64,000 bases of DNA from Candidatus Poribacteria bacterium (GTDB taxonomy: Bacteria > Poribacteria > WGA-4E > WGA-3G): contig CBDANF010000002.1 of NCBI GenBank assembly GCA_965197475.1, forward strand, positions 224,001-288,000. Direction: 5' to 3'. The translations under genes and the position numbers were made by a program. Below are positions 2,415-24,160 of the stretch, piece by piece. The notes beneath the pieces are model-generated. The model saw nothing but the letters and a program-made list of their open reading frames with translations. It was not told the DNA's origin and did not search any database. The stretch's first letter is position 1. The number at the start of each line of letters is the position of its first letter.

Positions 2415-3563
2415 ATGAAACGACTTACACTAACATCGTTAGGACAGATCCCTGAAGCCGATATCTCCTTTGGGGACTTGACTGTGTTGGTAGGTGAACA
2501 AGCGAGTGGAAAGAGCATTCTACTCCAACTTGTAAAGTTAATTTTAGACGTAGGCGATATTACGCAAACTCTCAAAAAACACGGTTTTGATTGGCACGAG
2601 AAATCTGAGGATTTTTTATCCCTCTATTTCGGTGAAGGGATGGAAGGGATTTGGGACAATACCACGACGAAAATCACCGTTGACGACGTGGACTTTGATC
2701 TTGACAAAGAATTATCCAGAAAAGGTAGAAAAAAATCGGAGAGACTCTTCCTGATTCCTGCACACCGAGTAATGACACTCAAGGATGGATGGCCACGTGC
2801 TTTTACGGATTACGCTCTTGGTGACCCTTACGTTGTTAAGCAATTTAGTGAACACCTGCGTCTATTACTAGAAACGGGTTTGGGTTCTGGTAAAGGTGAC
2901 ATCTTTCCGCAGGCAGGCCGTATGAATAAAGCGATACGCGACACAATTGGGGAGCGTATTTTTGGCGGAGCTAAAGTTCAACTGGATCGTTCAGGTTTGC
3001 GTAAACGAATTGTCTTAGAGGTTGAAGGTAGTCATCTACCGTTTATGGTTTGGTCAACTGGTCAGCGGGAATTCGTGCCTCTGTTGATGGGACTGTACAG
3101 GTTAATGCCTGCGGGAGGCACGCGAAAGAAAAATAACCTCAATTGGGTTGTTATTGAAGAACCGGAAATGGGCTTACATCCTCAATCCATTTCAGCACTG
3201 CTCACTGTTATTTTTGAGTTAATGCGGCGCGATTACAAAGTAATTGTTTCTACTCATTCGTCGCAAGTTCCTGAGCTAATATGGGCGGCACAATTACTTG
3301 TCAAATGGAATGTTGATTCAACAACCCTATTAAAATTATTGGATTTGAATACCACTTCCTTTTCCACGGAGTTAGCAGAAACAGTATTTTGGAAAAAAAC
3401 TTTCAAGACCTATTATTTGTCTCCACATAACGAGGTTAAAGACATTTCAACATTAGATGCTGAAGATCCGGACGAAGCAGTTTCAGATTGGGGTGGACTC
3501 ACGATATTCAGCACAAAGGTCGCTGATGTCATTTCTGAAGCTATGTGGAGAGCAAACCTATGA
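2415..3563 (+). CDS. ABC-fold ATPase of AAA_15/AAA_21 (AbiEii/OLD-like) type
   Basis: Walker A GEQASGKS, signature STGQ, Walker B VVIEEPE, H-loop STHS; no TM segments; RBS AAGGAG. Confidence 0.8.
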   Translation: MKRLTLTSLGQIPEADISFGDLTVLVGEQASGKSILLQLVKLILDVGDITQTLKKHGFDWHEKSEDFLSLYFGEGMEGIWDNTTTKITVDDVDFDLDKELSRKGRKKSERLFLIPAHRVMTLKDGWPRAFTDYALGDPYVVKQFSEHLRLLLETGLGSGKGDIFPQAGRMNKAIRDTIGERIFGGAKVQLDRSGLRKRIVLEVEGSHLPFMVWSTGQREFVPLLMGLYRLMPAGGTRKKNNLNWVVIEEPEMGLHPQSISALLTVIFELMRRDYKVIVSTHSSQVPELIWAAQLLVKWNVDSTTLLKLLDLNTTSFSTELAETVFWKKTFKTYYLSPHNEVKDISTLDAEDPDEAVSDWGGLTIFSTKVADVISEAMWRANL

Positions 3564-4018
3564 GTTTTGTTGATGCAGTTAGGCACACTCTCGAAATTGC
3601 CGAATGCCTAAAAGCAGGGCTGCAGGCACTGGGTTCTAATCGTCATAAAGTCAAAGCAGATGCAACGCGCAGCATAACAGGAAGCGTTGATTTAGACGAA
3701 TGTCTTGCGCAACGTTATCCAAATGCGACTCGTTGGGACTATGTATTCGGTTATAAAGATCGGCTTTACTATGTTGAAGTTCATCAAGGGCGCGCAAGTG
3801 AAATAGAAAACGTCATAGCAAAATTAGATTGGTTAAGACAATGGCGCAAACAGGCAGCAACAAACCTTGAAAATTTGAAGGATCGGAGCACCTATCACTG
3901 GATTTCCACCGGAAAAATTGAATCAGCATTCGCTAAAAATAATAGATATCGTAGAATCTTGCGTCAAAAGAGTATCTTTGGACCAGATCGTATGTTGAAC
4001 GTTGATTCTGTTCCGTAA
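3560..4018 (+). CDS. Hypothetical protein, possible PD-(D/E)xK-like nuclease, translationally coupled to the ATPase
   Basis: ATGA overlap with the ATPase stop at 3560-3563; 'RWDYVFGY...YYVEVH' D...ExH spacing. Confidence 0.55.
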   Translation: MSFVDAVRHTLEIAECLKAGLQALGSNRHKVKADATRSITGSVDLDECLAQRYPNATRWDYVFGYKDRLYYVEVHQGRASEIENVIAKLDWLRQWRKQAATNLENLKDRSTYHWISTGKIESAFAKNNRYRRILRQKSIFGPDRMLNVDSVP

Positions 4019-7474: not shown

Positions 7475-7503
7475 TTGAAAATATATTGGAAATATGGTAT
7501 ATT
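7475..7503 (+). promoter_or_regulatory. Sigma70-like promoter of the STAND-ATPase pair
   Basis: TTGAAA-17 bp-TATATT with extended TG. Confidence 0.5.
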
Positions 7504-7558: not shown

Positions 7559-10500
7559 ATGCGTATACAATTAATTCAACAGAAGGTTCCAATTGGAAGC
7601 CAAATCATACTTACGCTAAAAAATGATGAGGAAGTCTCAGGACTTCTTACGGAAATCGGGCTTGATTATATAACTCTGGAAATAGCAAATCGTCAAAAAA
7701 CAATTTTGGCGGACGCAATCTTAATGTTTGACGTACAAGGAGAGGACAGTGAAGTTGAAGCAACTAATTCAACAGATGTTAATACAGTATCAACCGATTC
7801 GGTTCCAGAGCAGGTTGAAACACCTGACTCAACAGATGCTAACACAGAAGCAATAGACCCGGTTGAAGCATCAGAGTCTTCAGACGTTAAAACAGAGCCA
7901 ACAGAACCAGTTCCAGAGCAGGTTGAAGCCCCTGACTCAACAGATGCTAACACAGAATCAATAGACCCGGTTCCAGAGCAGGTTGAAGCATCGGAGTCTT
8001 CAGACGTTAAAACAGAGCCAACAGAACCAGTTCCAGAGCAGGTTGGAGCCTCGGAGTCTTCAGATGCTAAAACAGAAACATCTGACTCAGTTCCAGACCA
8101 AGTTGAAGCATTTAATCCAACAGATGCTGATACGGAATCAACAGATCTCGTTAATCCTGAAGAACAGGCTTCTGAAAAACTAACTGAAATCGTGACCCGA
8201 TATAATACTGAAATCAATATCTCCTCAATTGAATTGGAAGTGCCAGATTTTACCTTTCCCGCAAAAGAGTTGACAAGTTGGCAAAATACAGATATTGCTG
8301 GCAAGTGGTTACAAATCAAGAATAAGTATGAGAACGCTCAAAAAATCAATGAATTAAGTACTAAATTTGGTAGAATTCAACCACTTCTAATGGAAGTTAA
8401 ATCTTTAGTTCGGCGTTTCCCAAATTCTCCATCGCTAAAACGTGTTACTGCCTATTTTTACGCTGTATCAGATGATTGGCAGGAGGCTATCCAGATTTAT
8501 AAAGAGGTGGCGATTACTTCTGAGGACGCGAACGATTGGTTTAATGTTGCAGTATCAGCGTTGCAGCTGAATAAAAAAGAACTCGCTTGTTATAGTTTGG
8601 AAAAATACTTCAATGGCATTTCTGTAATTGATAAGTTAAATGCGTGGTATATCTATGTCAATCTCGTAGGGAAATTTAACAACCTTTCTGCCTTCCGTGA
8701 ATTGTGTAAAAAAGGCGAAAATGATGTTGCTGAAAATGAAATTGAAGTTTTATTGGATGCGGCTATATATCTCTTTAAGAGGAAGGTTACCACAGAATTA
8801 GCGGTAGAAATTGTACAAAAACGAATCAAAGGCGAACCCATTGCATCTCTGCTTATAGAAGTCTCTCAAAAACTTGGTGGTCAGTCCACTGAGTCCTACA
8901 AGCGATTCTTGTCAGAGTTCATGAACGATATGATTGCTTCGGAGAAAACAATACATCCGATTTCTCCTGAATATCCTGAACGCATTGATACCGTAAAAAA
9001 GAGCCTTCATCATATACCATCACAAAAACATGACTTAGAAACTCAAGAGGAAGACCCTTATACGATCGCAAAGCGTGCTGATTTAGTGGAAAAAGACCTT
9101 GAGAAAGCGGAACAGTATTATCGAGCGTGCATTAGCCAAAATATCAAGCATGACAGTGCAATTAAGGATTTGGCAATGGTTCTTGTTCGGTTAGGGCAAC
9201 CAGAGGAAGCAGTAGATTTACTCGAAAAAAATAGAGAAAAAGTTATAGATGAACAGTCTATAGATAACGTTTTAATTTCTGTGTACCCTGCTGCGGCTCA
9301 ATATGATAAAGCAATTAACCTGCTTAACAATGCTCTCAAGCAAACCCATGATCAGGAACGTAGACTGCAAATTCGCATGCAAATCGCTAGTGCTTATATT
9401 AAGCTAGAAGATTATGTAAGTGCTGAAAAGCAATTCCATCTTGTTCAGAAACTACGCCCACAAAATATTACTGTACAAAGGAATCTTGCCTTTTGTCTCT
9501 CAAAACAGAATCGCTATGATGAAGCAAAGCAGATTTTAGATATAATTCAGAGTACGTCCCCTGACGCGAAAACTACGGAGTTATTAGAAGCAATTGAAAG
9601 GGCAAAGAGGACAGGCGAATTTATACTTGATGAGGACGCAATCATTGAGGTTGAAACTGTCCTTTCATATTTGTCAGGTGAATTAAGTGACTTCGCACAT
9701 TTTTTCCTAGATCGGTGTGCATTTGATGGTGTCTCACCTGAACGGGTTAACGAGGGGAAATACACGGGTTCTGAAAAAGATTTTCGGTATGATATGGAAA
9801 GGCTTGAAGATATTGCCAAGCAACTAGGGACCAAGCGACCTCGTGATAGAAGTCATTATTATCTCTCGGCTGCTAGAATCTACTTTGATCTGGGTGGTAA
9901 TCAGAATGTTTTCTATCGTTACCTCTGCCGAAGTTTTGCTTCAAGAGGTGATGCTGCGGTGAGTGAAAATAAACACTTGGATACTGTTAGAGAATGGTAT
10001 TGTGAGGCATTAACTGCTTATGATGGCGACAAAACACGACGTAAAAGGGATGAGCAGGATGCAGTTAATTCACTCGTTAGATATCTATATTCAACATTGG
10101 GGAATGCACATATTGATTTAACTCCGAACACCCGCACTTTCAATGAAGTAGTGAGAAACGTTATTAATAATCATCCAGACAAGAAAAAAGTTTTTGATTT
10201 TATTGCGTATCTTATTTTACACAGTCGGTTTGCTGCTGACAGGCTTTTGAACCGTCTATACGATAATGATACTCTAAGAACAATTGCAGTAGATTATTTA
10301 AAAGAAATGGATATACTGGTACCTGATGTGATGGATCGGCTCGTGGATTTTGTCCATCCTTGGAATGAATTACGAAATGGGAAATTCAACGAAGCTCATA
10401 ACATATCAGACAAATTGCGATTATTGAACAATTTTGATCTGACACCGTCATGGTTAGAAGACAACATTAGATTCACAAAAGACATTCGGACAAGTTTGTT

Positions 10501-12316
10501 TTTTGAATTAGATCAACAACGTGTTGGAGCATTGCAGAGAATCCTTGAAAGCGCATTGGAACTTTGCAAACAGGTAACGTTTGAAGAACGACAACACTGG
10601 TGTTCTCAACTTCGTAGTTTTTGTCAGGATCTACTTAGAGGTATTGAAGAAAGCCCAACAAGAGTCTCTGTAGAAGATGTTTATCCTATTACTGAGGTCA
10701 TCCAAGAGAAAGTGAATTCATACCTCGACGAACTTTACGAGACCTCAAAACCTCAACTGACACTCAGACTACCTGTGGAATCTTATGTCCCTGATACTAA
10801 CCGACAAATAGAAGTTCAGATTGTTTTAGAAAATGAGAGAGGCCGAAGTCCCGCTGAGTCGTTAGAGTTAATCGTTCAGGCGGACGAAGCATTTTTTGTG
10901 GTGACAGAATCGGAGATTAAGCAGAATGAATCTTTACGTGGAGGCGAACAATCAATTCTGACAGTCCCATTACGCGTAACTCCGGACGCTTTACAATCCC
11001 AGACCTTTTCTTTATCCCTTTGTGCTCAATATCGTACTCGGACGAAAGAACAAGTACAAACTCCAGATGAGAATCTTTCCATTCGCCTTTATTCAGAAGA
11101 TGAATTTGAGAAAATTGAAAACCCTTATGCTGCTTATGCTGAAGGTGGTATTGTTGGCGATACGAATATGTTCTTTGGGCGGGAAGAACTTATCCGAAAC
11201 ATTGCACAAGCTATTCAAGAATCTCAATTGCAGAGCAAATGTGTCTTGGTCTTTGGACAAAAAAGATCTGGAAAGTCTTCGGTGTTGTATCACCTAAAAG
11301 AGTTGCTCCAGGAAGATAGAGAACTTCTTATCCTTGATTTAGGAAACATGTCTACGCTTCTGGATCAACATGCCCAAACCTCACTCTTGCACCAATTTCT
11401 CAACGGTATTTTGAGAGCATTTGAACGTGCGATTCAGCGAAAACAACATGAGGGTTTAAGTCCCCTTGAACTTGCTATTCCTGGTAAAGAATTCTACGAT
11501 CATCCCGCACCTCTGCAACTTTTTGAAGATACCTTTGTGAAACTAAAGGATTTGACTAACGGGCAAGCAGGCCAAGAAGATTGGCGTGGCACAAGGGTTG
11601 TCCTCCTGATAGATGAATTTCAGTACATCTATGACCCGATCATTGAAGGCAAAATTCCTGACTCGTTCATGAAAAATTGGAAAGCTTTGCTACAGGCGAA
11701 TTACTTTAGTGCTGTGTTGGTAGGACAAGATGTGATGAAGAAGTTCAAACTCCGATTTCCCAATGAGTTCGGCACAGCGCAGGATGAGCGAGTCACCTAT
11801 CTTAAGGAAGAAGATGCCCGGAAACTTATTGATGAACCAATACGCATTGATGGAAGGCAAGGGGACAGTCGCTACCGGGAACAAGCAATCGAACGTATTG
11901 TAGAACTCACTGCAAGAAGTCCATTCTATATTCAAATTATTTGCAACCGTCTCGTTGACTACATGAATGTTAAACATGCGGGACTGGTAACAGAGGCGGA
12001 TGTAGAACAAGTCAAAAATGAACTAATACACGACGTAAATGCACTTGGCCTAGACAAATTTGATAATCTCATCAATTCGGGAGATACATCACCAGATGCT
12101 ATTTCAGATGAAGATGCTCTAAAAGTTCTGAAAGTTATCGCTGACAATAGTAATAGGACAGATCCTTGTCATCGCGATCGAATCGTTTGCCAAACAAATT
12201 CACCAATTGATACAATTCTGGATGATCTTGTGAATCGGGATGTTGTTAAACGCCGCGATCAATCTTATCAAATTCAGGTTGGCCTTTTCAAAGAGTGGCT
12301 TGCTGTCAACGGATAA
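7559..12316 (+). CDS. Large TPR-containing STAND-type AAA ATPase (Sm-like N-terminus, acidic repeat linker, TPRs, Ig-like domain, C-terminal P-loop)
   Basis: TPR-like helices at about aa 290-680; 'NPYAAYAEGGIV...FFGRE' pre-motif; Walker A GQKRSGKSS; Walker B LLIDEFQ; 'TARSPFYIQ' STAND GxP-type motif. Confidence 0.8.
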   Translation: MRIQLIQQKVPIGSQIILTLKNDEEVSGLLTEIGLDYITLEIANRQKTILADAILMFDVQGEDSEVEATNSTDVNTVSTDSVPEQVETPDSTDANTEAIDPVEASESSDVKTEPTEPVPEQVEAPDSTDANTESIDPVPEQVEASESSDVKTEPTEPVPEQVGASESSDAKTETSDSVPDQVEAFNPTDADTESTDLVNPEEQASEKLTEIVTRYNTEINISSIELEVPDFTFPAKELTSWQNTDIAGKWLQIKNKYENAQKINELSTKFGRIQPLLMEVKSLVRRFPNSPSLKRVTAYFYAVSDDWQEAIQIYKEVAITSEDANDWFNVAVSALQLNKKELACYSLEKYFNGISVIDKLNAWYIYVNLVGKFNNLSAFRELCKKGENDVAENEIEVLLDAAIYLFKRKVTTELAVEIVQKRIKGEPIASLLIEVSQKLGGQSTESYKRFLSEFMNDMIASEKTIHPISPEYPERIDTVKKSLHHIPSQKHDLETQEEDPYTIAKRADLVEKDLEKAEQYYRACISQNIKHDSAIKDLAMVLVRLGQPEEAVDLLEKNREKVIDEQSIDNVLISVYPAAAQYDKAINLLNNALKQTHDQERRLQIRMQIASAYIKLEDYVSAEKQFHLVQKLRPQNITVQRNLAFCLSKQNRYDEAKQILDIIQSTSPDAKTTELLEAIERAKRTGEFILDEDAIIEVETVLSYLSGELSDFAHFFLDRCAFDGVSPERVNEGKYTGSEKDFRYDMERLEDIAKQLGTKRPRDRSHYYLSAARIYFDLGGNQNVFYRYLCRSFASRGDAAVSENKHLDTVREWYCEALTAYDGDKTRRKRDEQDAVNSLVRYLYSTLGNAHIDLTPNTRTFNEVVRNVINNHPDKKKVFDFIAYLILHSRFAADRLLNRLYDNDTLRTIAVDYLKEMDILVPDVMDRLVDFVHPWNELRNGKFNEAHNISDKLRLLNNFDLTPSWLEDNIRFTKDIRTSLFFELDQQRVGALQRILESALELCKQVTFEERQHWCSQLRSFCQDLLRGIEESPTRVSVEDVYPITEVIQEKVNSYLDELYETSKPQLTLRLPVESYVPDTNRQIEVQIVLENERGRSPAESLELIVQADEAFFVVTESEIKQNESLRGGEQSILTVPLRVTPDALQSQTFSLSLCAQYRTRTKEQVQTPDENLSIRLYSEDEFEKIENPYAAYAEGGIVGDTNMFFGREELIRNIAQAIQESQLQSKCVLVFGQKRSGKSSVLYHLKELLQEDRELLILDLGNMSTLLDQHAQTSLLHQFLNGILRAFERAIQRKQHEGLSPLELAIPGKEFYDHPAPLQLFEDTFVKLKDLTNGQAGQEDWRGTRVVLLIDEFQYIYDPIIEGKIPDSFMKNWKALLQANYFSAVLVGQDVMKKFKLRFPNEFGTAQDERVTYLKEEDARKLIDEPIRIDGRQGDSRYREQAIERIVELTARSPFYIQIICNRLVDYMNVKHAGLVTEADVEQVKNELIHDVNALGLDKFDNLINSGDTSPDAISDEDALKVLKVIADNSNRTDPCHRDRIVCQTNSPIDTILDDLVNRDVVKRRDQSYQIQVGLFKEWLAVNG
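7752..8157 (+). repeat. Intragenic 60-bp (20-aa) tandem repeat with 120-bp higher-order period
   Basis: Units start at 7861, 7921, 7981, 8041 and 8101 with (g/a)gttg(a/g)agc; the 7861 and 7981 units are nearly identical; one unit lacks 12 bp (PEQV). Confidence 0.9.
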
Positions 12317-12326
12317 ACGGAAAAAC

Positions 12327-13853
12327 ATGAATCCATTTGCTAATTACGGTAGAATCGTCCATGGTGACCGTTTCATTGGACGTAAGACAATTGTGAACAA
12401 TATCGAAAACCGGATTATTCATCCCGATAATCCGGGGAATCTTGTGATCATTGGGATGCATCGTATCGGCAAAAGCAGCCTGGCGCACAAAGCAATCATT
12501 GAGCAAAAAGAAAACCTAACAAAGAAAGGGGTACTTCCGATTTGGATGGGGGTTGCTTCATACGATCTGTCCTCAGATTTCTTCCACGCGCTGGTAAAGA
12601 GATGTGTTCGGGAAATGAAGAGGTTAGATTGGCTATCAGGCACGGTTCAAGACTTAGCTGACTACGCATTGGAAACTGAAGATTCATGGGACGAAATTAA
12701 AGATTTTTTTATAGAAGTTAAAGAAATCGGGTATCGGATGCTCCTTATTCTTGATGAATTTGATCACGCGCGACATCTCTTCAAAGGAAACACGGCCTTT
12801 CAACGTTTACGGGAACTTGCTGATTACCCAGATTACGGGTTTTCTCTCGTTCTCACATCCCGTCGAAGTATTAGAGATATCGAACTTTCGGCTGGATCCT
12901 CGTCCCCATTTCATAACATTTTTCAAGTTCAACGTTTGGGAATGTTTAATGACGAGGACTTAGAAATTTATTTTTCCAGATTTTCAAATATTGGAATACC
13001 AATTTCTGATGAAGACAAAAAACGTGTGTTGTTCTATTGTGGAGATCATCCCTATCTGCTTGAGATGTTAGGTTGGGAAATAGTTGAGAGGTATCGTCAA
13101 AATCAAGAACAGGAAATTGATGTTGATAAAGCTGCTGATGCTATTATTCAATCTGTCTTTGAGCATTATGACGACATGATTCGGTTACTGCGGGAGGAAA
13201 AAACACTTAATAAACTCCTCCAAATTTTGCTTGGTCCTGTCATTGATGTCAAGCCAACTGATGTAACTGAACTTCAAAACTACGGTTTGATTAAACTTAC
13301 CGAGAAAGATCATGGAGATGAAAAGCACCCTGAAAAAGGTACTTATGTTGCCTATTCAGAACATTTCCACGATTATCTTAAACTGCATGAACGTTCAACA
13401 GAATTTACTGATGATGTATGGCCAATCTGGAGGAAAACTGAGAAAGCATTGCGTGAAGTGATTACAACCACCCTGTTTAAGACGTATGGAGATGACTGGA
13501 TTAAAGAGTTAGAGAAAGGACGTTCTAACTTAAAGAAAATTTTCGACGAGTGTCGACAAGCACAACGGAAAGAAGAAAATTCTTTTGGAGACAGAGCGTC
13601 ACAGAATTTGATTGATTTCACCTATCCTGCAGATTTGTTTACGATTATTTTCGCAAAAGGATTGTGGCAACCATATTTTCAACCACTCTTTGGACATAAT
13701 CCAAATTACTGGGAGCAACGCAAACAGTTATTGACAAAGTGTAGAAATCCCTTGGCTCATAATCGTGGTGAGATACTTAAACCCCATGAGCGTAAGACTC
13801 TTGAAGCATACTGTGATGAAATTCTGGGAGTATTGTCTGATTATATAGAATAA
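12327..13853 (+). CDS. STAND-type AAA ATPase with C-terminal HEPN (Swt1-like) RNase domain
   Basis: 'NPFANYGRIVHGDRFIGR'; Walker A GMHRIGKSS; Walker B LILDEFD; 'GDHPYLL'; C-terminal 'EKALREVI' helix and RNPLAH (RxxxxH) HEPN motif. Starts 10 bp after the upstream stop. Confidence 0.8.
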   Translation: MNPFANYGRIVHGDRFIGRKTIVNNIENRIIHPDNPGNLVIIGMHRIGKSSLAHKAIIEQKENLTKKGVLPIWMGVASYDLSSDFFHALVKRCVREMKRLDWLSGTVQDLADYALETEDSWDEIKDFFIEVKEIGYRMLLILDEFDHARHLFKGNTAFQRLRELADYPDYGFSLVLTSRRSIRDIELSAGSSSPFHNIFQVQRLGMFNDEDLEIYFSRFSNIGIPISDEDKKRVLFYCGDHPYLLEMLGWEIVERYRQNQEQEIDVDKAADAIIQSVFEHYDDMIRLLREEKTLNKLLQILLGPVIDVKPTDVTELQNYGLIKLTEKDHGDEKHPEKGTYVAYSEHFHDYLKLHERSTEFTDDVWPIWRKTEKALREVITTTLFKTYGDDWIKELEKGRSNLKKIFDECRQAQRKEENSFGDRASQNLIDFTYPADLFTIIFAKGLWQPYFQPLFGHNPNYWEQRKQLLTKCRNPLAHNRGEILKPHERKTLEAYCDEILGVLSDYIE

Positions 13854-13871: not shown

Positions 13872-14321
13872 ATGCCACAAAAAACAGCATTCGTCTATCA
13901 CTCAGACTACCTTAACCACGACACAGGTCCCGAACACCCTGAACGGTCTGACCGACTCATAGCCAGCCTTGCAGCACTCCAACAAAGCAATGTTTGGCAG
14001 CAGCTGCACCACATTGGCCCTACACCCGCGACCGTTGAGCAGATCACTTACGCACACAACCCCGGTTATAGCGAACATATCCGTCAATACTGTGAGTCGG
14101 AAGTTCCACTCACCTACGACACGCCTGTCGGACATGAATCTTATGATATTGCCCTGCTTTCAACGGGTGGGGTGTTATGTGCAGCAGAGGCAGTGATCAC
14201 AAAGAAAGTGAAAAACGCCTTTGCGATGGTTCGTCCACCAGGACACCACGCGACGCCGGGACAGAGCATGGGGTTTTGTCTATTCAACAACATCGCCATT
14301 ACAGCACGTTATCTTCAATGA
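13872..14321 (+). pseudogene. Histone deacetylase/AcuC-family protein, N-terminal half only
   Basis: 'HPERSDRL', 'RPPGHHA', 'GFCLFNNIA'; stops before the DxDxHHG Zn-binding motif, next to the IS630 remnant. Confidence 0.85.
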
Positions 14322-14399: not shown

Positions 14400-15060
14400 T
14401 AATACCATTTCTGAATAATTATATTCCATTTGCGACTTTCGTGAAATATTTAAAATTTGTGATTTGGGCAATAGCTGCCTTCGTATACTTTCTCAAGATT
14501 TGTGTGATTTTGTCCTGCATTTCCTCTATTGACCCCAATGTGTGCTGAAACAATTTGGCTTTGATGTCTTGCCAGAGTCTTTCGATCGGGTTCAACTCTG
14601 GACTATAAGGGGGTAGAAAAATCAAGGCGATGTTGTCAGGAAGTTGTAGCGATTTCGCCTGATGAAAACGACCATTATCAAGCACAAGGACATTTAGCGT
14701 CTCTGGAAAAGTCTTTGCTAACTCATCAATGCATACTTGGAAACAGACACCATTGAGCCAGGGCATTTCAAGGAAGAAACTTTCTCCTGTTATCGGTTCC
14801 ACAGCTCCGTATAGATAAAGGCTCTGGTAAGTGTGATCAACATTGGCAATCGGTTTAACACCGCGTAAGGTGGGACGCCGAGACGACACAGGCAAAAGAC
14901 CACACCTTGACTCGTCTTGGCAAAAAAGTCGGACGCTTTGAAAAGAAGATGCCTTCTCCGAAATCACCTCCTCAACTTTGGTAGCGAAGTTAGCAACGAA
15001 CGCATCACACGCTACATCGTTTTTTTTATGACTTTTGCGAGGCACTTTGAGTTTCGCATT
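14400..15060 (-). mobile_element. IS630-family element, 5'-truncated (catalytic DDE part only)
   Basis: ORF 14419..15045 with DESRCG, LDNGRFH, PPYSPELNPIE; 'AKLKVPRKSHKKN' junction with A-run; HTH part absent; TA-ended terminus near 14400. Confidence 0.8.
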
Positions 15061-16499: not shown

Positions 16500-17330
16500 A
16501 TGGAGCAACGAGAAATGGTTACGGCATTACGGACAGACTTTTCGGTTCGGCAGATATGTGAGACACTCGGTTTCAACCGAAGCAACCTCTATTATCACCC
16601 CAAGCAGGCCCCGTGTGAAGCGGGCCTCCAGGATGAAATAGAGACGTTATCTTTGCTATATCCAACATACGGATATAGGCGTCCCACACAGTTGTTGGTG
16701 CGTAACGGATACACCATCGGGTATAAACGTGTTGCCCGATTGATGAAGTCCGCCAACCTCTCGGTTTCTGTCAAGCGTGTCTGTCAAACCACGACATCCG
16801 TTGCGGGTGTGCGTCCCTGGAGCAATCGCCTTGAAAACCTTGATGTCTCCCGATGTGATCAGGTCTGGGTGGGCGATATCACCTACGTCCGCCTCAAAGG
16901 ACACTTTATCTATGTTTGTCTGCTCATGGATGTCTTCACTCGCATGATCAGAGGGTGGTATATCAGTCAACACTTGACGCAATCTCTAACGTTGAAACCT
17001 TTGGAGACAGCATTATGTCAAAATGTCCCAGAGATCCATCATTCTGATCAAGGCGTTCAATATCTTTCAAATGCGTCCATCTCACTGCTTAGGCATCATG
17101 GGATTGAGATTTCAGTCGCCCGGAGAGGGTGTCCTTGGGAGAACGGATATGCTGAAAGACTTATCCGCACGCTCAAGGAAGAAGAAGTTCATCTCAACGA
17201 CTATGAGGACATCCACGAAGCGAGAGCCCGCATTGGGCATTTTATTACACAAGTATATAATCACAAACGCCCTCACTCTGCGTTAGGGTATTTGACACCT
17301 GTGGAATTTGAGCAAAAAAACTTGTCTTAA
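16500..17330 (+). CDS. IS3 transposase OrfB (integrase core)
   Basis: WVGDITY, HHSDQGVQY, ENGYAER, RPHSALGYLTP; lies in the -1 frame relative to orfA. Confidence 0.92.
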   Translation: MEQREMVTALRTDFSVRQICETLGFNRSNLYYHPKQAPCEAGLQDEIETLSLLYPTYGYRRPTQLLVRNGYTIGYKRVARLMKSANLSVSVKRVCQTTTSVAGVRPWSNRLENLDVSRCDQVWVGDITYVRLKGHFIYVCLLMDVFTRMIRGWYISQHLTQSLTLKPLETALCQNVPEIHHSDQGVQYLSNASISLLRHHGIEISVARRGCPWENGYAERLIRTLKEEEVHLNDYEDIHEARARIGHFITQVYNHKRPHSALGYLTPVEFEQKNLS

Positions 17331-17796
17331 CTTTGCTAAATTTTGGTCTGAATAAACGGTAGCACTTCAACTAATATATTATTATCCATAACTATAACTA
17401 TAACTTGATATAAATCATTTGGACTTGTAATATTTGCTTTAATACTAATTATATTAGGTTCTATTTCTTCAACATTAAATACTTGATTTATCTTTGGATG
17501 TTGCCATGTTATTACTCGATTGGCATTAAAAAAATAATGTTTATGTAACCATCTAGCTTCGTATTCTGATAATCCTTTTCCTGGTCCCATAAAAGAATTT
17601 ACAGCTTCAGTATGATATAAACCAAAGGTATGTCCTATTTCATGTGCAATAAGTCTAACCATATCTGTATCTGCATTCTCTGCAAGATAACATGAACCTC
17701 CAAAATTAAAATTATAAAAAGGCCATCCAACTCCCCATTGACAGCATCCTTGATGCAAATTAATTGTATTAATACCTCCCACAATAAAAACATGTA

Positions 17797-18782
17797 GGCT
17801 CATGTAAAAAGTAAGTGCTATTTTTTCAAAGTTATGTTAGCGTGTTACCTATGGACTTTCCAATACAATCTCTCATGGATGAAGAAAAAACTCAAGCGTG
17901 GGTGTTGGATCATTTCCACCCTCAAGGGCTGTGTTGCCCAAAATGCCAAGCGAGCGTGGCGGAGGCACGCAAGTTCCGTCCGACTGAAACAAGTGGTCTA
18001 CAAGTGTATCGCTGCAAACACTGTGAGAGCATCTACAACCTCTATACCGGGACGGTCTTTGCTGGCACGCAGTTTCGTCCCTCACAGGTCGTTCTGCTTT
18101 TGCGCGGTGTCTGTCAAGGTGTTTCAAGTGCACAACTCGGGTGTGAACTGGGTCTAAGTCGTCAAACCGTTCTTTCTATAAGACGTAAACTCCAAACTTC
18201 GGCAGAGCAGATACAACCCGAAGCTGCTTTACCTGATGCTGAAGTCGAAACAGATGAGATGTTTCAAAACGCCGGTGAAAAAGGCGATAAGCACGTTGAT
18301 GCTTCGGATCCGCCGCGTCGGCGTGGCAATAAACGCAGGGGACATGGGACTTATGACAATGATCGTCCGCCTATTGTTGGGACGAAAGGTCGCGAAAGCG
18401 GTCTCCTGAGATTACGTGTTGTGCGGCACACCGATTCTGCGACGCTTTCAACACACGTTCATCAGTGGACGTTGCCGACTTCAACGGTGTATACGGATGG
18501 TTGGCGTGGCTATAACCGTATTCAGCGCGCCCGTGAGATTGTTCTCCATAAGGATGGCGAGTGGGCAAGAGACGCAGACGGTGATGGTCTTTACGAGATC
18601 CATACAAGGACGATTGAAGGTGCCTGGACGACGCTGCGAAACTTCCTTCGTCCCTTTCGTGGCGTTCATAAAAAGTTCCTCGCCGGTTACGTCGCAATCT
18701 GTGAGTTCGTCATGAATCTAAAAGCTGTCAGTGTTGATTTTATAGCAAAACTCGTCAAAAGCACTTACTCTTGACATGAGCG
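17797..18782 (+). mobile_element. IS1595-family insertion sequence (986 bp)
   Basis: IRs GGCTCATGTAAAAAGTAAGTGCT / rc CGCTCATGTCAAGAGTAAGTGCT; flanking direct repeat AAACATGTA. Confidence 0.9.
17851..18774 (+). CDS. IS1595-family transposase
   Basis: Zn ribbon CPKC...CKHC; VETDE, VYTDGW, 'HTRTIEGAW' catalytic motifs. Confidence 0.9.
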   Translation: MDFPIQSLMDEEKTQAWVLDHFHPQGLCCPKCQASVAEARKFRPTETSGLQVYRCKHCESIYNLYTGTVFAGTQFRPSQVVLLLRGVCQGVSSAQLGCELGLSRQTVLSIRRKLQTSAEQIQPEAALPDAEVETDEMFQNAGEKGDKHVDASDPPRRRGNKRRGHGTYDNDRPPIVGTKGRESGLLRLRVVRHTDSATLSTHVHQWTLPTSTVYTDGWRGYNRIQRAREIVLHKDGEWARDADGDGLYEIHTRTIEGAWTTLRNFLRPFRGVHKKFLAGYVAICEFVMNLKAVSVDFIAKLVKSTYS

Positions 18783-19169
18783 AAACATGTATATTCTTTG
18801 AATTCTTTAATACTTGAGGTATTTCAGGACTTATTTTATCCCATGTATTTGATTGATATATCAATGACGGATGATCACCATCTACTACATTTATTTTTAC
18901 ATTTCCATTTACTTCCCTTTCTAACTTAAAAGTTTGATTTCCATAACCATATCTGAACATTTCTTCCGTATATAGTTCCTGAACATCATTCATCCATCCT
19001 CTAATTTTATTAAATGGAATATTGTTTATATTATTAGGTTTAAAATAAATTGTTTTTACCAAATAATCTGCGTTAACTTGTATTGATACTATCATTAAAA
19101 CTATAGTTAATAATAGCAATCTTAATTTTTTCATAATAACTCCCTATATCAATTAATTATATTTTGTTT

Positions 19170-20106
19170 GAGGATATTGGTTAAATAATGATGCAAGAAT
19201 TAGCGGGATACCCTCTGAACCGCGCTGCATCATATTTCAGTTGCGGTAATGATAACACTTATAACGAGAGTTGTCAATGAAAAAATCAGACTGATTTTCA
19301 TTGACTTATATGCCTAAAACTTGTATCCTCATTGAAACAACTCATTTCTACTCACAGGAGGATACCATGAAAGCGTGTCCAAGATGTCAACATATTCACT
19401 TCGTCAAAAACGGGTTCGTCAACGCAAAACAACGCTATAAATGTCCAAGTTGCCACTATCAATTCACACGCAAAACACCACGAGGTAAACCCCAGACACA
19501 TAAAACCCTCGCTCTGCTCTTGGACTGCCACGGTATTTCAATGAATGCTATCTCAAAACTCTTCAACATTCATGTAACAACTGTTCTCAAATGGGGACGC
19601 TCCTATGCGAAAAAACACGCCCCGAAACGGACATTTTCACCCGGATCCACCGTAGTTTTGGAGCTTGATGAAATGTGGCATTATATCGGAAAGAAGAAAA
19701 ACAAACTTTGGATATGGAAAGCACTTGACAGGAACACAGGATACCTCATAGATTGGCAATGCGGCGGACGCAACACAGAAACCCTTGAAAAACTGACGCA
19801 TCGCCTCAAAGCCTTGAATGTCAAAATGTCCTACACCGACAAGTGGCAGGTGGACGAATCCATCCTACCTGCTTCAAAACATGTTCAAACGAAAGCGGAG
19901 ACACATCGCATTGAACGCAACAATTGCTTGATGCGGCACTGGTTCGGCCGGTTCAAACGTCCGTCCATTATTGTTTCAAAAAGTGTGGAGATGGTGAACC
20001 TAACGATTGCCTTGTTCGCACGATTTCGTGTTAATGGAGACGTGTTTGACATTTTAAAACTTGGCGGAATGGAAACCATGAATATCATTAGTTAGGCAAT
20101 ACCCTC
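19170..20106 (+). mobile_element. IS1-family insertion sequence (937 bp)
   Basis: IRs GAGGATATTGGTTAAATAATGAT / rc GAGGGTATTGCCTAACTAATGAT; 8-bp target duplication TTTTGTTT (19162-19169 / 20107-20114). Confidence 0.85.
19367..20095 (+). CDS. IS1-family transposase (single-frame InsA-InsB)
   Basis: CPRC...KNG...QRYKCPSC; ELDEMWHYIGKKKNKLWIW; YTDKW; IERNN; RBS AGGAGG. Confidence 0.88.
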   Translation: MKACPRCQHIHFVKNGFVNAKQRYKCPSCHYQFTRKTPRGKPQTHKTLALLLDCHGISMNAISKLFNIHVTTVLKWGRSYAKKHAPKRTFSPGSTVVLELDEMWHYIGKKKNKLWIWKALDRNTGYLIDWQCGGRNTETLEKLTHRLKALNVKMSYTDKWQVDESILPASKHVQTKAETHRIERNNCLMRHWFGRFKRPSIIVSKSVEMVNLTIALFARFRVNGDVFDILKLGGMETMNIIS

Positions 20107-20224: not shown

Positions 20225-21814
20225 CTACTTTTCATTCTCTTTTGCTGGTTCTACAGAAATTTTTGCCTGAAAGGCATTGATGTTTCCTTTTCCACTAAAC
20301 CAAGTACCGGTAGCACCCAACTGAAAGATTTTACCTTCGTCAAAACTATATCGCATTCTCCCTATCTGTCCAGACGGGATATCCCACACAGAAGTAAGTG
20401 CCTCAGTGGGAATTCCTTTTATAGGCAATTCGGCATCACCGTCAAACAGATCAAACGACCCGCCAGATTTGGCACTACCCATACGGATATCAATCTTTGG
20501 CGTCCCACCATCCTTAAACGCAGTGGTATCTATTGTAATGACATTGTAGTCTTGGTCACCGTGCCTTGGTGCGCGAAGAACATGCAAGACCTCTTGCTCA
20601 AGATGCTCTCCATCAAGCACTATGTTCAAACCGTTCAATATAGATGCGGAGGTATTCTCCCCGAACCCTGGGAATTTCGCATCCAAGGAATCCATGAGAA
20701 ACGTAAGGTAAGCCTCCTCTTCCGATATGCCCATTCCTGAGGGGTTGTCATAGAGATCATCTTCTGGAAGTTTACCCATCATATCAAATTCCGGAGAAAT
20801 AACTAAGCAATCTACCGGTGAATGTTGTTTCCAACCCTCCATGATGGGTTTTGCTAACGGGTGTGTTCTGTTAAAAATCTTTGACTTATCCTTATATCTC
20901 TGTGCCATGTAGGCTTTCTTTCTGGGAGTGCGTTCTAATTCTGCATTGGAAACCCAGATGTTGATAAAATTTTCATTTAAGAACTCTATAGTTCGATTGT
21001 CAGAGAGAGCACCTGCCCTCAAGCCTTTTCCGCTCCCTCAGCAGGACTCATCCGCTAACGGACCATCTATTGAGATAACATGAATTAGCTTAGCTTGTTC
21101 TTCTGCCAACTCCACTGCTTGATATGGAGACATCCAGTTAATTTGTTCTGACTTGTAGAAACATAAACTCAGCGCGCGTTCTGCCTCTTCTTGGGTTATT
21201 GATTCTGTGAAATCGGTGTTTTGTGCCACATCTTCTATTCCTGTTGTTAGTTCCATTTGGGGGCAGAAACCTGCATCCGTAATAGCGTAATCATCGTTTT
21301 TGTCCTCATGCCAATTGACATCAAAGTTCACTGTGCCTTCGGGCACGTACATCTTAAAGAAAGCAATTTTATCTTCTATCTTGTCAATTATGAGATTTCC
21401 TTTAAACTGTGAGGGTGTAAACCATCCATCTTTTAACTTAAACTCTGCATGTATACGAAATTGAATTTCGGCAAATCTATCGTTATACGCACGTAGGCAT
21501 GCCCATAGACCTTGTGAGTCTTCTGCATCCATTTCCAGACGTGGATCGGGATGAAGTTGCCTTAGCAATGTGAGCACACCTTATTTTTCAATTTGCCAAA
21601 GTTCACCAACCGAAACCGATTCCGATGGAAGAAATGTTTGAAAAACCGATTCAGGATACTGCTTCTCCGGTTCAGCAACCTGCAGGTTTGCTAATTCATC
21701 CCACTCCACGTGGAAGTTGTATTGCGTGTATTCAATGGGCGCGATGAAACCTTTGACCAACACGTCTGCATCACCGTCAAGATTAAGCGTAATTTTGTCT
21801 GATAAAATACTCAT
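20225..21814 (-). CDS. Selenoprotein N (SelenoN)-like protein with in-frame UGA (Sec) at 21038-21040; also carries an in-frame TAA at 21581-21583 (pseudogene or sequence error)
   Basis: Three ORFs lie in one frame. 'GPLADESC-UGA-GSGKGLR' corresponds to animal SelN 'GALDDQSCUGSGRTLR'; 'FRIHAEF', 'WFTPSQFKGNLII' and 'LNENFINIW' also match SelN. RBS GGAGA before ATG at 21814. Confidence 0.85.
21005..21020 (-). promoter_or_regulatory. Putative bacterial SECIS hairpin
   Basis: GAGGGC-AGGU-GCUCUC stem-loop starting 17 nt after the UGA, with G in the apical loop. Confidence 0.6.
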
Positions 21815-21936
21815 TTTAATTCTCCACTGCAGAAATTTTTTGTATTCACTTATACGCATTTTCGGATGCAGTTTGCGGGTGTGTAGGTATTTTGTGATAT
21901 AAGGTTAACTTTCAAAAAACCTGTAGTGTTTTCAAT

Positions 21937-22112
21937 GTAGGGCCAAATCAACGCAGCGTGCGCGTGTGACACGCTGCGGGATCTCTGTGCCCGCCCGTTG
22001 TTTTCGTATATGAGAGATAGCGGGAAACCCAGAGACCCCGCCCAACGAGGCGTGACGAGATTTGTCTCCTAAATTGATACCTATGGGTTTCACGGTGTTC
22101 TACACAACCTAT
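21937..22112. repeat. Cluster of REP-like palindromes
   Basis: cgggatctctgtgcccg / gggaaacccagagaccccgccc pair, plus gggtttcacggtgttctacacaacctat, which is related to the 53073-53159 element. Confidence 0.55.
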
Positions 22113-22133
22113 AAATTTCAGTGCGATAGTGTG

Positions 22134-23261
22134 TCAGCGACCGCCCAGGTGTTCCAATCTTTTGAAAGGGACCCCGCCTTCGCTATACATGTGCATCACA
22201 TGGTCAATAAATTCGTATTTGGCAAGTGAACAGGAACGAAGTTTATTAGGGTGGAAAAGATAATATGCAACACTTTCCGCCCAATCTTCATTTGGATTCT
22301 TTGAATAAGCGTATGCTGTAACAAATTCTTTTTGACTTTTCGTCTTTGACCACCCATGCTTATTATTTGGGTCTTTACGCCATCCTCCAAGTTCCGACCA
22401 TTCCTTTCTAAGCTTCCCGTTAAGGGCATACTCCCATAAAAAATGTGCTTTTTCATGAATGATTATGCGCTGGAACTCAATTTGATTACCTATGCGAAAA
22501 GTATGTGCGGCATACTCAACACAATCTGCAACAATCCATGCCGAACCTGCATACGGTGCTTGCTGGCTACGAAGAAGATATTTTAATCGAGGTATTTTAT
22601 GTAATCCTTTGGGGAATTTTTCAAATACTGACATGAGCATCATAAGTTCTTGGTTTGTAAATTTCGATACACGTAGTTCCCCTATATACTTACGTAGTTT
22701 CTGTCCTATCTTCTCAGCTTCAGGTGTCCTTATACTAACTAAACTAAGACCGTACACTTCTTTCAGCACGAGTTCTATTGCATATCTGTCAGCCCCATCC
22801 TTCAGTATTAGTTTTACTGCAGGCATATTTGTCCAATCCTCAGTTACGAATTGAGCGACAACCCGAAAAAGCCGTTTGTTTGATAGCAATTCTTCCTGAG
22901 ATTCTTCTTCCTGAAATTCTTCAGTTGAAAAAACATCACTACTAATAGTAACGTGTTTCAAACTATTTACAGATTCAACCCGAACATCATCTTGTAAATC
23001 TTCATCACTTATCTTCCACACAGAAAGATTCAATTTGTGGTTTGGATATTTAGATTTTTGATATATAGGATAAATAGATTCAAAGGTTTCTAAAAGCGCG
23101 TCTGCTTGTTTTGTAGTCCAAGTAGTGTCTAAATTGACAGCATGCCTCTGTTTCAACTGTGTAAAAGTATTTTGACTCGGTTTTTGAAAAAGAGATACAT
23201 AGCAACTTGATTGAAAAATTATGATAGTAAGAAAAACAGTGCTGTTAATAACTCGCATCAT
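22134..23261 (-). CDS. Putative lipoprotein zinc metallopeptidase (gluzincin-like)
   Basis: N-terminal hydrophobic stretch ending 'FQSSC'; HEKAH plus 'NPNEDWAES'. Confidence 0.7.
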   Translation of the reverse strand: MMRVINSTVFLTIIIFQSSCYVSLFQKPSQNTFTQLKQRHAVNLDTTWTTKQADALLETFESIYPIYQKSKYPNHKLNLSVWKISDEDLQDDVRVESVNSLKHVTISSDVFSTEEFQEEESQEELLSNKRLFRVVAQFVTEDWTNMPAVKLILKDGADRYAIELVLKEVYGLSLVSIRTPEAEKIGQKLRKYIGELRVSKFTNQELMMLMSVFEKFPKGLHKIPRLKYLLRSQQAPYAGSAWIVADCVEYAAHTFRIGNQIEFQRIIIHEKAHFLWEYALNGKLRKEWSELGGWRKDPNNKHGWSKTKSQKEFVTAYAYSKNPNEDWAESVAYYLFHPNKLRSCSLAKYEFIDHVMHMYSEGGVPFKRLEHLGGR

Positions 23262-23472
23262 TACCTCTTATTGCTGTGAAGCACACATCTTAGACTTGTG
23301 ATATGAAGCCTTTTCTTTACTTTTAGCCAGTTTATTATAAGGTTATTAAGTTTCGATTTTTCGGGTGTATTTTAACAAATGTTAATGTTTTATAGCAAAT
23401 CTAAATATGTGAACGCACCTGTGCCTGGTAGGTGCAGTGAATAAACGTCAAATGCGCGTATGGCATTCGGAA

Positions 23473-23496
23473 GGAAACCCAGAGACCTCGCCCTAT
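23473..23496. repeat. REP-like palindrome, family A
   Basis: ggaaacccagagacctcgccctat, similar to the copies at 22021 and 55689. Confidence 0.55.
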
Positions 23497-23578
23497 AATG
23501 AAAAGGATAACACACGCTGAATTGATGTCTATGGGTTAGACTGAAAGTGAAGTCCAAACTTGGGCAAAGGGAGTTAGT

Positions 23579-24160
23579 CTATTGGTTTTCATACGCAGCA
23601 ATGTCCGCTTCATACTGCAAAGTCCAACCGATTTCATCGAGTCCATTTAGCATGCAGTATTTCTCAAAATTGCCAATCTCATAAGTGTGTGCAGTTCCAT
23701 CAGGACAGATTACCGATTGTTCTTCTAAATCTACCATTAGTCGGTACCCTTCGGTATCCTGCCCTGCTTGGCTCAGCGAGGCGATAACATCTGTAGATAG
23801 GGCTATGGGCAGTATACCGTTCTTATAACAATTGTTGCGGAAGATGTCGGCAAATGATGGTGCAAGAATCGCTTTGAAACCGTACTGCTGCAATGCCCAC
23901 GGCGCATGCTCTCGTGAACTACCACAACCGAAGTTTACACCAGCAATTAGTATACTTGCGCCCGCATAACGCGGATAGTTCAGCACAAACTCAGGATTTG
24001 GGTCGCCATTTTCGAGGTAACGCCAATCGTAAAATAAAAATTCGCCGAAGCCGGTCCGTTCAATCCTTTTCAGAAATTGCTTAGGGATAATCTGGTCGGT
24101 GTCAACATTAATTCGGTCAAGTGGTACAACAAGTCCAACGTGTTCTTTAAATGCTTCCAT
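23579..24160 (-). CDS. leuD: 3-isopropylmalate dehydratase small subunit
   Basis: [47 protein letters not shown]. Confidence 0.97.

Follow-up and report, generated by a model that had tools for sequence, protein, structure and literature searches.

Two Adjacent STAND ATPase Genes in a Poribacteria Contig

The DNA analyzed here (the window) is a 64,000-nt stretch of contig CBDANF010000002.1 (positions 224,001–288,000) from a Candidatus Poribacteria bacterium (GCA_965197475.1), and all window coordinates refer to it. Two genes on its forward strand each encode a STAND ATPase, and comparison of homologous sequences indicates that they form a real, selected, and widespread two-gene cassette. In the gene 1 product, TPRs precede a C-terminal ATPase, and in that of gene 2, the ATPase is N-terminal and a HEPN domain matching HEPN_Swt1 stands at the end. 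The first-pass annotation of this DNA had read both domain orders and the 10-bp gap between the gene 1 stop codon and the gene 2 ATG in the same way, but had missed the Ig-like domain before ATPase 1, the 60-bp linker repeat, and the cold-shock domain of relatives. A longer open reading frame (ORF) call placing the gene 2 start at 12240 was rejected: it overlaps gene 1, and the closest homologs begin MNPF. The features are as follows.

7475..7503, + strand: possible sigma-70-type promoter 5′ of gene 1 (TTGAAA-17-TATATT with TG), tentative
7559..12316, + strand: gene 1 (ORF), sensor-like protein with C-terminal STAND ATPase, 1585 aa; stop codon 12314–12316
7559..7741, + strand: N-terminal, likely Sm/Hfq-like (SH3-type) beta-barrel, aa 1–61 (profile match)
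7754..8145, + strand: acidic Pro/Thr/Ser linker of variable length, coded by a 60-bp tandem repeat (6.7 copies)
8186..8935, + strand: first helical, TPR-like block, aa 210–459 (weak TPR-family matches only)
9056..9628, + strand: second TPR block, about aa 500–690 (Pfam TPR_19, E 5e-16; TPRs at aa 513–683)
9656..10744, + strand: conserved alpha-solenoid and helical bundle, aa 700–1062 (AlphaFold model)
10748..11095, + strand: Ig-like beta-sandwich, aa 1064–1179, directly N-terminal to ATPase 1
11105..12310, + strand: STAND ATPase 1 and presumed winged helix (Pfam nSTAND1/AAA_22/AAA_16 at aa 1201–1445)
11255..11278, + strand: ATPase 1 Walker A (GQKRSGKS)
11612..11617, + strand: ATPase 1 Walker B DE (IDEF)
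12327..13853, + strand: gene 2, STAND ATPase 2 with winged helix and HEPN, 508 aa; ATG at 12327
12327..13390, + strand: STAND ATPase 2, MNS/archaeal-ATPase-like (Pfam AAA_22/ATPase_2)
12453..12476, + strand: ATPase 2 Walker A (GMHRIGKS)
12753..12758, + strand: ATPase 2 Walker B DE (LDEFD)
13410..13850, + strand: Swt1/Abi2-type HEPN domain, with RNPLAH at 13743–13760 (aa 473–478)

The two ATPase modules are homologous across 333 columns (hhalign probability 98%, 18% identity), and their pre-motifs, NPY..GGIV..MFFGR in gene 1 and NPF..GRIV..RFIGR in gene 2, align with each other. The shared NP[YF]...GR pattern, which had been noted earlier together with intact Walker A and B motifs in both proteins, is present because the modules are homologous, and it therefore marks one ATPase class and is not unique to the pair. 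Both modules have the attributes of MNS-like STANDs (Walker A/B, hxGR pre-motif, GxP helical motif, and AAA+/winged-helix fold), with the winged helix of ATPase 1 inferred from homology to gene 2. The Walker K, D, and E residues are unchanged in 68/68 aligned gene 1 rows (motifs on which the locus search relied) and in 53/53 full-length gene 2 rows, and GK[ST] is present in 142 of 144 gene 1 representatives that were found independently. ATPase 2 carries TSRR and Arg162, a putative arginine finger kept in 64 of 65 gene 2 rows; at the aligned places, ATPase 1 has GQD, an atypical sensor 1, and a Lys invariant in 68/68 rows. The AlphaFold model of gene 2, built from 18 sequences, has a mean predicted local distance difference test (pLDDT) value of 64 and is poor in the ATPase; its fold best matches that of a Pyrococcus ATPase (2qen), with matches to Orc1/Cdc6 and then to NLRs, and also to 2fna. 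PDB sequence searches returned no match for gene 2 and only generic TPRs for gene 1.

The gene 2 tail contains an Rx4H motif in a HEPN fold of the Swt1/Abi2 group and, judged from sequence and model, is a predicted ribonuclease (RNase). On its own, the tail scores 27.5 bits against Pfam HEPN_Swt1, exactly the family cut-off. Of 53 rows, 51 retain the Arg of the motif and 51 retain its His, and the fold matches AbiF (8vz6; Z 8.1, root-mean-square deviation (rmsd) 4.4, 144 residues aligned) as well as yeast Swt1's C-terminal domain (4pqz; Z 7.4, rmsd 3.1, 108 aligned).

The N-terminal barrel of gene 1 is likely Sm-like, and it is present in 66 of the 79 loci described below and in 84 of 115 full-length representatives. 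A profile of 49 barrel sequences matches many Hfq/LSm chains (E 1e-3 to 1e-2), in keeping with the Sm-like assignment made in the first-pass annotation; however, its two best matches, a biotin-ligase C-terminal barrel and a designed SH3, are not Sm proteins, and these and the RimP C-terminal barrel score at least as high as the Hfq/LSm chains. An Atlas search with the barrel gave leads that were all under 0.9. Many relatives have a cold-shock domain after the first helical block; the window copy has an alignment gap there. The corresponding columns, which lie between the TPR blocks, are filled in 57/115 full-length representatives and in just 25 of the 120 closest homologs, each at rank 91 or lower; Pfam CSD was confirmed in L002, L067, and P0321. 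The 1961-aa gene 1 homolog of L067 (5594–11479) has three cold-shock-column matches and lacks the Sm-like barrel.

The region of aa 700–1190 is modeled with a mean pLDDT of 93. Fold searches with its helical part gave generic helical matches only, from a list that was filled by the Ig domain and barely probed the helices, and an Atlas search with the region returned no usable match. The Ig-like domain resembles appendage- and macroglobulin-type Ig domains (Z about 10, rmsd 2.6–2.8 Å over about 104 residues). At E ≤ 1e-30, 687 representatives match gene 1 aa 690–1585, and the close homologs with names are chiefly from Candidatus Poribacteria. The G+C content of the two genes (0.39–0.41) is slightly under that of most of the window.

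Co-inheritance and Modularity

GTDB was scanned with a 50-sequence gene 1 alignment, and the best 80 of 285 relatives yielded 79 loci (L-numbers); the search used the gene 1 Walker motifs and required ATPase 1 to be present, in any reading frame. A gene-2-type ATPase lies downstream of gene 1, or is fused to it, in 78 of the 79; the first-pass annotation had proposed a check of such co-occurrence. ATPase 2 and HEPN share a single ORF in 60 loci, and ATPase 2 has another tail or none in 6 (including one gene 1 fusion and one gene split off by an inserted YhcG gene); gene 2 is broken or cut off in 12 and absent from 1 (L066). Spacing between the genes is −4 to +19 nt in 66/79 loci. Nine others have no located start, and the remaining four are the fusion, the YhcG insertion, L066, and one likely mis-start. 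No third conserved gene was found across lineages among the neighbor clusters of the loci, in which recurrent clusters are lineage-bound or belong to generic families. At L066 (8930–17036; Okeania), the only locus with EAD1-trypsin genes, the gene 1 homolog is followed by EAD1-trypsin and EAD1-ATPase1-trypsin genes. L021 has an intact pair and, about 6 kb downstream, a second, frameshifted gene 1 copy (20228–24111).

The two ATPases have largely been inherited together. FastTree trees were built for the 64 pairs that both alignments contain, with broken-gene-2 rows left out. The ATPase 2 tree contains 21 of 27 supported ATPase 1 splits, the reverse comparison gives 23 of 25, and none of the supported splits of ATPase 1 is contradicted by a supported one of ATPase 2; shared host ancestry adds to this agreement. 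The pair is distributed patchily over Chloroflexota, Poribacteria, Latescibacterota, Cyanobacteria, Bacteroidota, Actinomycetota, and archaea; intact pairs from cultured hosts include those of L077 (Micromonospora), L079 (Actinomadura), and L080 (Streptomyces). The ATPase tree mixes phyla, and an archaeal copy is nested within bacterial ones in it; this suggests that the pair was transferred as a cassette. Pairwise ratios of nonsynonymous to synonymous substitution rates (dN/dS) are 0.10–0.21 in 12 of 13 comparisons (one is saturated), HEPN included, and these sequence comparisons indicate that every part tested is under purifying selection.

Natural fusions occur in two orders: gene 1–ATPase 2–Schlafen/AlbA_2 (P0313, P0316, and L064 from Methanoregula), and ATPase 2–HEPN-like–helical bundle–Ig–ATPase 1 (P0305, P0390, and P0391), in which the Rx4H motif is intact in P0390 alone. 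Two known fusions escaped a search for longer forms of gene 2, which was therefore insensitive. The gene 2 tail also varies: six of the 60 single-ORF HEPN loci have a tandem double HEPN, L069 has an AAA_21 ABC ATPase, L068 has an Rx4H motif with a faint DUF4145 match, L067 and L076 have tails without a family assignment, and L040 has almost none. A YhcG PD-(D/E)XK gene (L069:14896–15927) lies between gene 1 and gene 2 of L069.

In tblastn searches, window gene 1 matched one plasmid, and window gene 2 had no match in the plasmid and phage collections. An Acinetobacter plasmid (NZ_MH220285.1; L001:5017–12782) carries hsdR, a methylase–HsdS–ATPase-1-type fusion, and an ATPase-2-type gene whose helical tail has no assignment (94 vs. 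11 bits for the ATPase-1-type domain and 73 vs. 12 bits for the ATPase-2-type domain), and similar genes are present on two further Acinetobacter plasmids. In this plasmid pair, a restriction–modification (RM) methylase stands where the sensor would be. Both inputs and outputs vary, and the constant part is therefore the ATPase 1/ATPase 2 pair; these domain comparisons indicate that modules on both the input and the output side can be exchanged while that core stays.

Short Forms of Gene 1 and Readings of the Pair

In 8 of the 66 barrel-bearing loci (L032, L043, L045, and L056 among them), the TPR region is deleted, leaving 306–678 nt between the Sm-like barrel and ATPase 1 instead of the normal distance of about 3,500. 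All eight keep the barrel and ATPase 1 in a single ORF, with differing junctions and at about seven separate tree positions, and a full-length sister exists for four of them. Gene 2 is intact beside five and broken in three. The chance of about seven independent deletions all falling in frame is approximately (1/3)^7, at about 1 in 3 each (ATPase 1 retention is partly ascertained by the search), and dN/dS is 0.12 and 0.15 in two short forms. In L037, to which the window is most closely related, an in-frame deletion was followed by frameshifts in gene 1 and gene 2. These data indicate that selection has preserved the Sm–ATPase 1 protein, which may restrain gene 2, serve translational coupling, or act as a working minimal sensor.

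The pair is probably a mobile two-gene conflict cassette, most likely for abortive defense against phages or other mobile elements, in which the sensor-bearing ATPase controls the HEPN-bearing ATPase. The two related STAND ATPases would make up a single switch, with gene 1 providing its input half and gene 2 its output half. A trigger (RNA, a ribonucleoprotein, or a phage protein) bound by the Sm, cold-shock, and TPR parts would alter the state of ATPase 1, and ATPase 1 and ATPase 2 may then form a mixed oligomer. HEPN domains act catalytically as dimers; such an oligomer would pair them into a composite RNase site, and cleavage of RNA would halt translation and leave the infected cell dormant or dead. 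Plant sensor/helper NLR pairs offer an analogy. The division of sensor and effector between two STAND proteins, as the first-pass annotation had it, is consistent with the two-gene unit, the co-inheritance, the fusions, and the swappable effectors of toxic type, but its TPR-sensing part is complicated by the eight TPR-less loci.

Co-oligomerization, a further part of that proposal, was examined with a complex model of ATPase 1 (402 aa) and gene 2 (508 aa), which scored 0.50 against 0.00 for the best control; runs have at least 87% of contacts in common and a partner pLDDT of at least 82. Of 157 solved complexes, 116 attained the score mark, as did 2 of 215 mismatches, and scores that reach the mark without exceeding 0.60 were given by only 18/157 solved complexes and by both mismatches. 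Direct ATPase 1–ATPase 2 binding is thus weakly supported by modeling.

Several observations count against a sensor-driven defense cassette. The complex score may mirror likeness to solved AAA+/STAND oligomers, the controls being unrelated proteins with no STANDs among them, and co-occurrence was followed in one direction only, from gene 1 to gene 2. The whole TPR region is missing from eight in-frame loci, five of them with an intact gene 2; the persistence of these forms means that TPR sensing is dispensable or that the logic is one of restraint and not of activation, and the short forms fit restraint of gene 2 by gene 1 equally well. In a context sample of 41 of the 79 loci, hand-picked for spread and covering the two nearest genes on either side under our own classification, a clear defense-type gene (RM, toxin, nuclease–helicase, or STAND) occurs in only nine (L012, L018, L023, L024, L029, L060, L067, L073, and L074), a count that has no background rate, and an ambiguous one occurs in seven more. 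Many loci lie amid housekeeping genes, and the window pair lies between an oxidoreductase and a deacetylase gene, a site common to close relatives. The neighborhood neither proves nor excludes defense, and the defense-island context is modest.

A guard or toxin–antitoxin arrangement, in which gene 2 is a latent toxin held off by ATPase 1 and the Sm barrel, is the main rival reading but considerably less probable. Damage to gene 1 or to a guarded host complex would free the RNase, and the cassette might persist partly as an addiction module. The in-frame retention of both parts in every short form, together with the low dN/dS of two, suits such restraint, and the RM-fused variant resembles guarding by PrrC, which guards restriction enzymes. 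However, translational coupling to gene 2 would also explain that retention, as would an Sm-only sensor that is still useful, three of the eight short forms keep gene 1 in frame despite a broken gene 2, and intact Walker motifs in both partners suit an active switch. Four loci (L036, L062, L070, and L071) combine an interrupted gene 1 with an intact gene 2, which also speaks against a restraining gene 1; ATPase 1 is still in a long ORF in these, and some breaks may be assembly errors.

It is unlikely that the pair serves RNA surveillance or stress dormancy rather than defense, as an ATP-driven machine that binds and cuts damaged or stalled host RNA complexes. Such a role would account for the three RNA-related domain types in one unit, the frequent housekeeping neighbors, and the lack of a gene 2 match in the phage collection, and the Swt1-type HEPN family is tied to eukaryotic RNA quality control in the accessible part of one survey (PMC3710099). 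In contrast, the pair has the hallmarks of a conflict system and not of a core function: patchy spread, inter-phylum transfer, decay in 12/79 loci, effector swaps that bring in non-RNase domains, and fusion with a restriction methylase. Least likely is a DNA-reading switch, in which the AAA+/winged-helix modules act as an Orc1/Cdc6-like heterodimer on foreign or abnormal DNA with the N-terminal modules as accessories: ORC/Cdc6 and archaeal AAA+–winged-helix ATPases are the best gene 2 folds, the pair is also fused to a DNA methylase, and TPR-less forms persist, but those fold matches come from the poor gene 2 model and are generic for the ATPase class, and the N-terminal domains, which are conserved, resemble RNA- or protein-binding modules.

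Around the window pair, the possible promoter is weakly supported, as promoter-type sites are no more numerous than chance predicts (17 found vs. 17.9 expected); its stretch is retained in the relatives L048 and L058. A search for an associated non-coding RNA was negative: the window has no Rfam match, and no upstream motif common beyond close relatives was found. A histone-deacetylase-family gene (13872–14321, +) starts 18 bp after gene 2 and ends at 149 aa beside a DDE_3 transposase gene (14419–15045, −); it is longer in L037, and this downstream neighbor is shared by close relatives only. Several insertion sequence elements and an RM fusion lie 0.5–17 kb downstream of the pair, including a transposase gene cluster of the rve, IS1595, and IS1 families (16500–20095) and a 1267-aa protein that joins HsdR N-terminal, N6 methylase, and HsdS parts (26604–30407, −), a candidate single-chain RM system. 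An AAA_21/AAA_15 ATPase gene (2415–4018, +), 4 kb upstream of the pair, overlaps a gene for a 157-aa protein without a Pfam match; the two resemble ATPase–nuclease defense pairs and are syntenic in L016, L028, and L058. The longest ORF of the window (42448–49719, +) encodes 2423 aa.

Relation to Known Systems

Neither PADLOC (2023 library) nor NCBIfam gives a system-level name for the window pair, which answers the question of a named PADLOC system raised in the first-pass annotation. The matches obtained are a weak one to mad8 on the ATPase (E 0.0025), one to PDC-M34B within the HEPN part, weak ATPase matches to PDC-S01 and similar models, and generic TPR matches. MADS was rejected as an identity: it is an eight-gene operon (mad1–8), the window has a two-gene unit, and the mad8 match is weak. 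No Avs model in PADLOC matches the two window proteins, and none is among the 25 families listed, of 28, for 70 homologs. No description of a Sm/TPR–STAND plus STAND–HEPN pair was found in the literature covered, which leaves out most subscription papers; the accessible parts of PMC11090510, PMC7159879, PMC13236601, 10.64898/2026.10.19.760177, PMC12458937, 10.1101/2023.03.30.534895, and 10.1101/2024.01.29.577857 contain none. The pair was likewise not found in the accessible part of the supplements of PMC13581612, whose clade tables may hold these ATPase domains under unmapped accessions.

The closest precedent is a two-gene STAND/nSTAND2–HEPN hetero-toroid directed against invaders, which was proposed as a prediction only (Kaur 2021; PMC8195603). 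Its layout, ‘??+STAND+wHTH’ followed by ‘STAND+wHTH+...+HEPN’, resembles that of the window pair in its MNS-like ATPases, its variable effector, and the placement of the first STAND at a C-terminus and the second at an N-terminus with the effector C-terminal to it. In that system, the effector-bearing ATPase has eroded Walker motifs (PMC8195603 alignment), whereas both ATPases of the window pair are intact; TPRs precede its HEPN, whereas the HEPN of window gene 2 begins about 10 residues after the ATPase module, with no TPR match; and its rows, among those listed in the accessible part of the source, are almost all from Proteobacteria (PMC8195603). Unlike it, the gene 1 family has Sm, TPR, cold-shock, and Ig domains that together span about 1,180 aa. 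Window gene 2 does not match Pfam nSTAND2 (PF20702) at E ≤ 0.1, and weak matches occur in 14/35 gene-2-type and 1/35 gene-1-type rows; 3 of 10 re-scored matching rows exceed the 24-bit cut-off, over profile positions of about 105–260 of 279 only. These profile comparisons indicate that the gene 2 family is related to nSTAND2; with intact Walker motifs and no TPRs, it would operate in the manner of that system but does not belong to it. A two-STAND hetero-ring with a HEPN effector had thus already been predicted (PMC8195603), and the window pair is a variant and not a new principle. It would offer a testable form of that ring, with the natural fusions and the 500–650-aa short forms of gene 1 as tools.

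Other systems share parts of the inventory. Swt1-type HEPN fusions with STAND ATPase, TPR, and S1 domains are listed, with three examples, in the accessible part of Anantharaman 2013 (PMC3710099, Table 1). The inventory of Swt1-type HEPN, STAND, TPR, and S1/cold-shock is the same, but the example in that text is a fused protein with an N-terminal HEPN, whereas the window has two genes, two ATPases, and the inverted order. TOTE/TALON, as described in the accessible part of PMC12458937, has a TPR–cold-shock fusion like that of many gene 1 relatives, but includes TBP-like genes; the window pair has no third conserved gene and no cold-shock domain. Nearest neighbors in the context sample number 149 (137 scanned together, 3 scanned separately, 1 antisense to gene 2, and 8 unscanned), and no TBP match was found among the 137. 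CARD-NLR/LypABC likewise consists of adjacent genes with interacting ATPase domains, but its CARD and trypsin-like peptidases, its ATPase without Walker residues, and its C-terminal TPRs, according to the accessible part of PMC13236601, have no counterparts in the window pair.

Avs/AVAST and bacterial NLR-like receptors share with the pair a STAND ATPase, a TPR-type sensor, and a toxic effector, and are activated, according to the model, by oligomerization (Lee 2026; PMC13581612, accessible part). They differ from the pair in being single chains with an N-terminal effector, a central STAND, and a C-terminal sensor. The same survey, the largest of those cited, clustered in its accessible part only regions C-terminal to the NTPase, and the N-terminal sensor of gene 1 therefore falls outside it; it names as open the question of whether STAND receptors sense non-proteins (PMC13581612). 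With its hundreds of divergent members (687 representatives) and candidate RNA-binding domains, the gene 1 family could test non-protein sensing by STAND receptors. Tentatively, the pair may even be a prokaryotic sensor/executor pair of two nucleotide-competent STANDs set tail to head, which would sense RNA or a ribonucleoprotein by an Sm/Hfq-like ring (with cold-shock domains in many members) and whose portable ATPase core would take TPR–cold-shock, Sm alone, or a type I RM methylase as input and HEPN, Schlafen, or an ABC ATPase as output. The bacterial STAND receptors of the cited papers are single chains whose C-terminal sensor binds phage proteins, and the gene 1/gene 2 family both inverts and splits this design.

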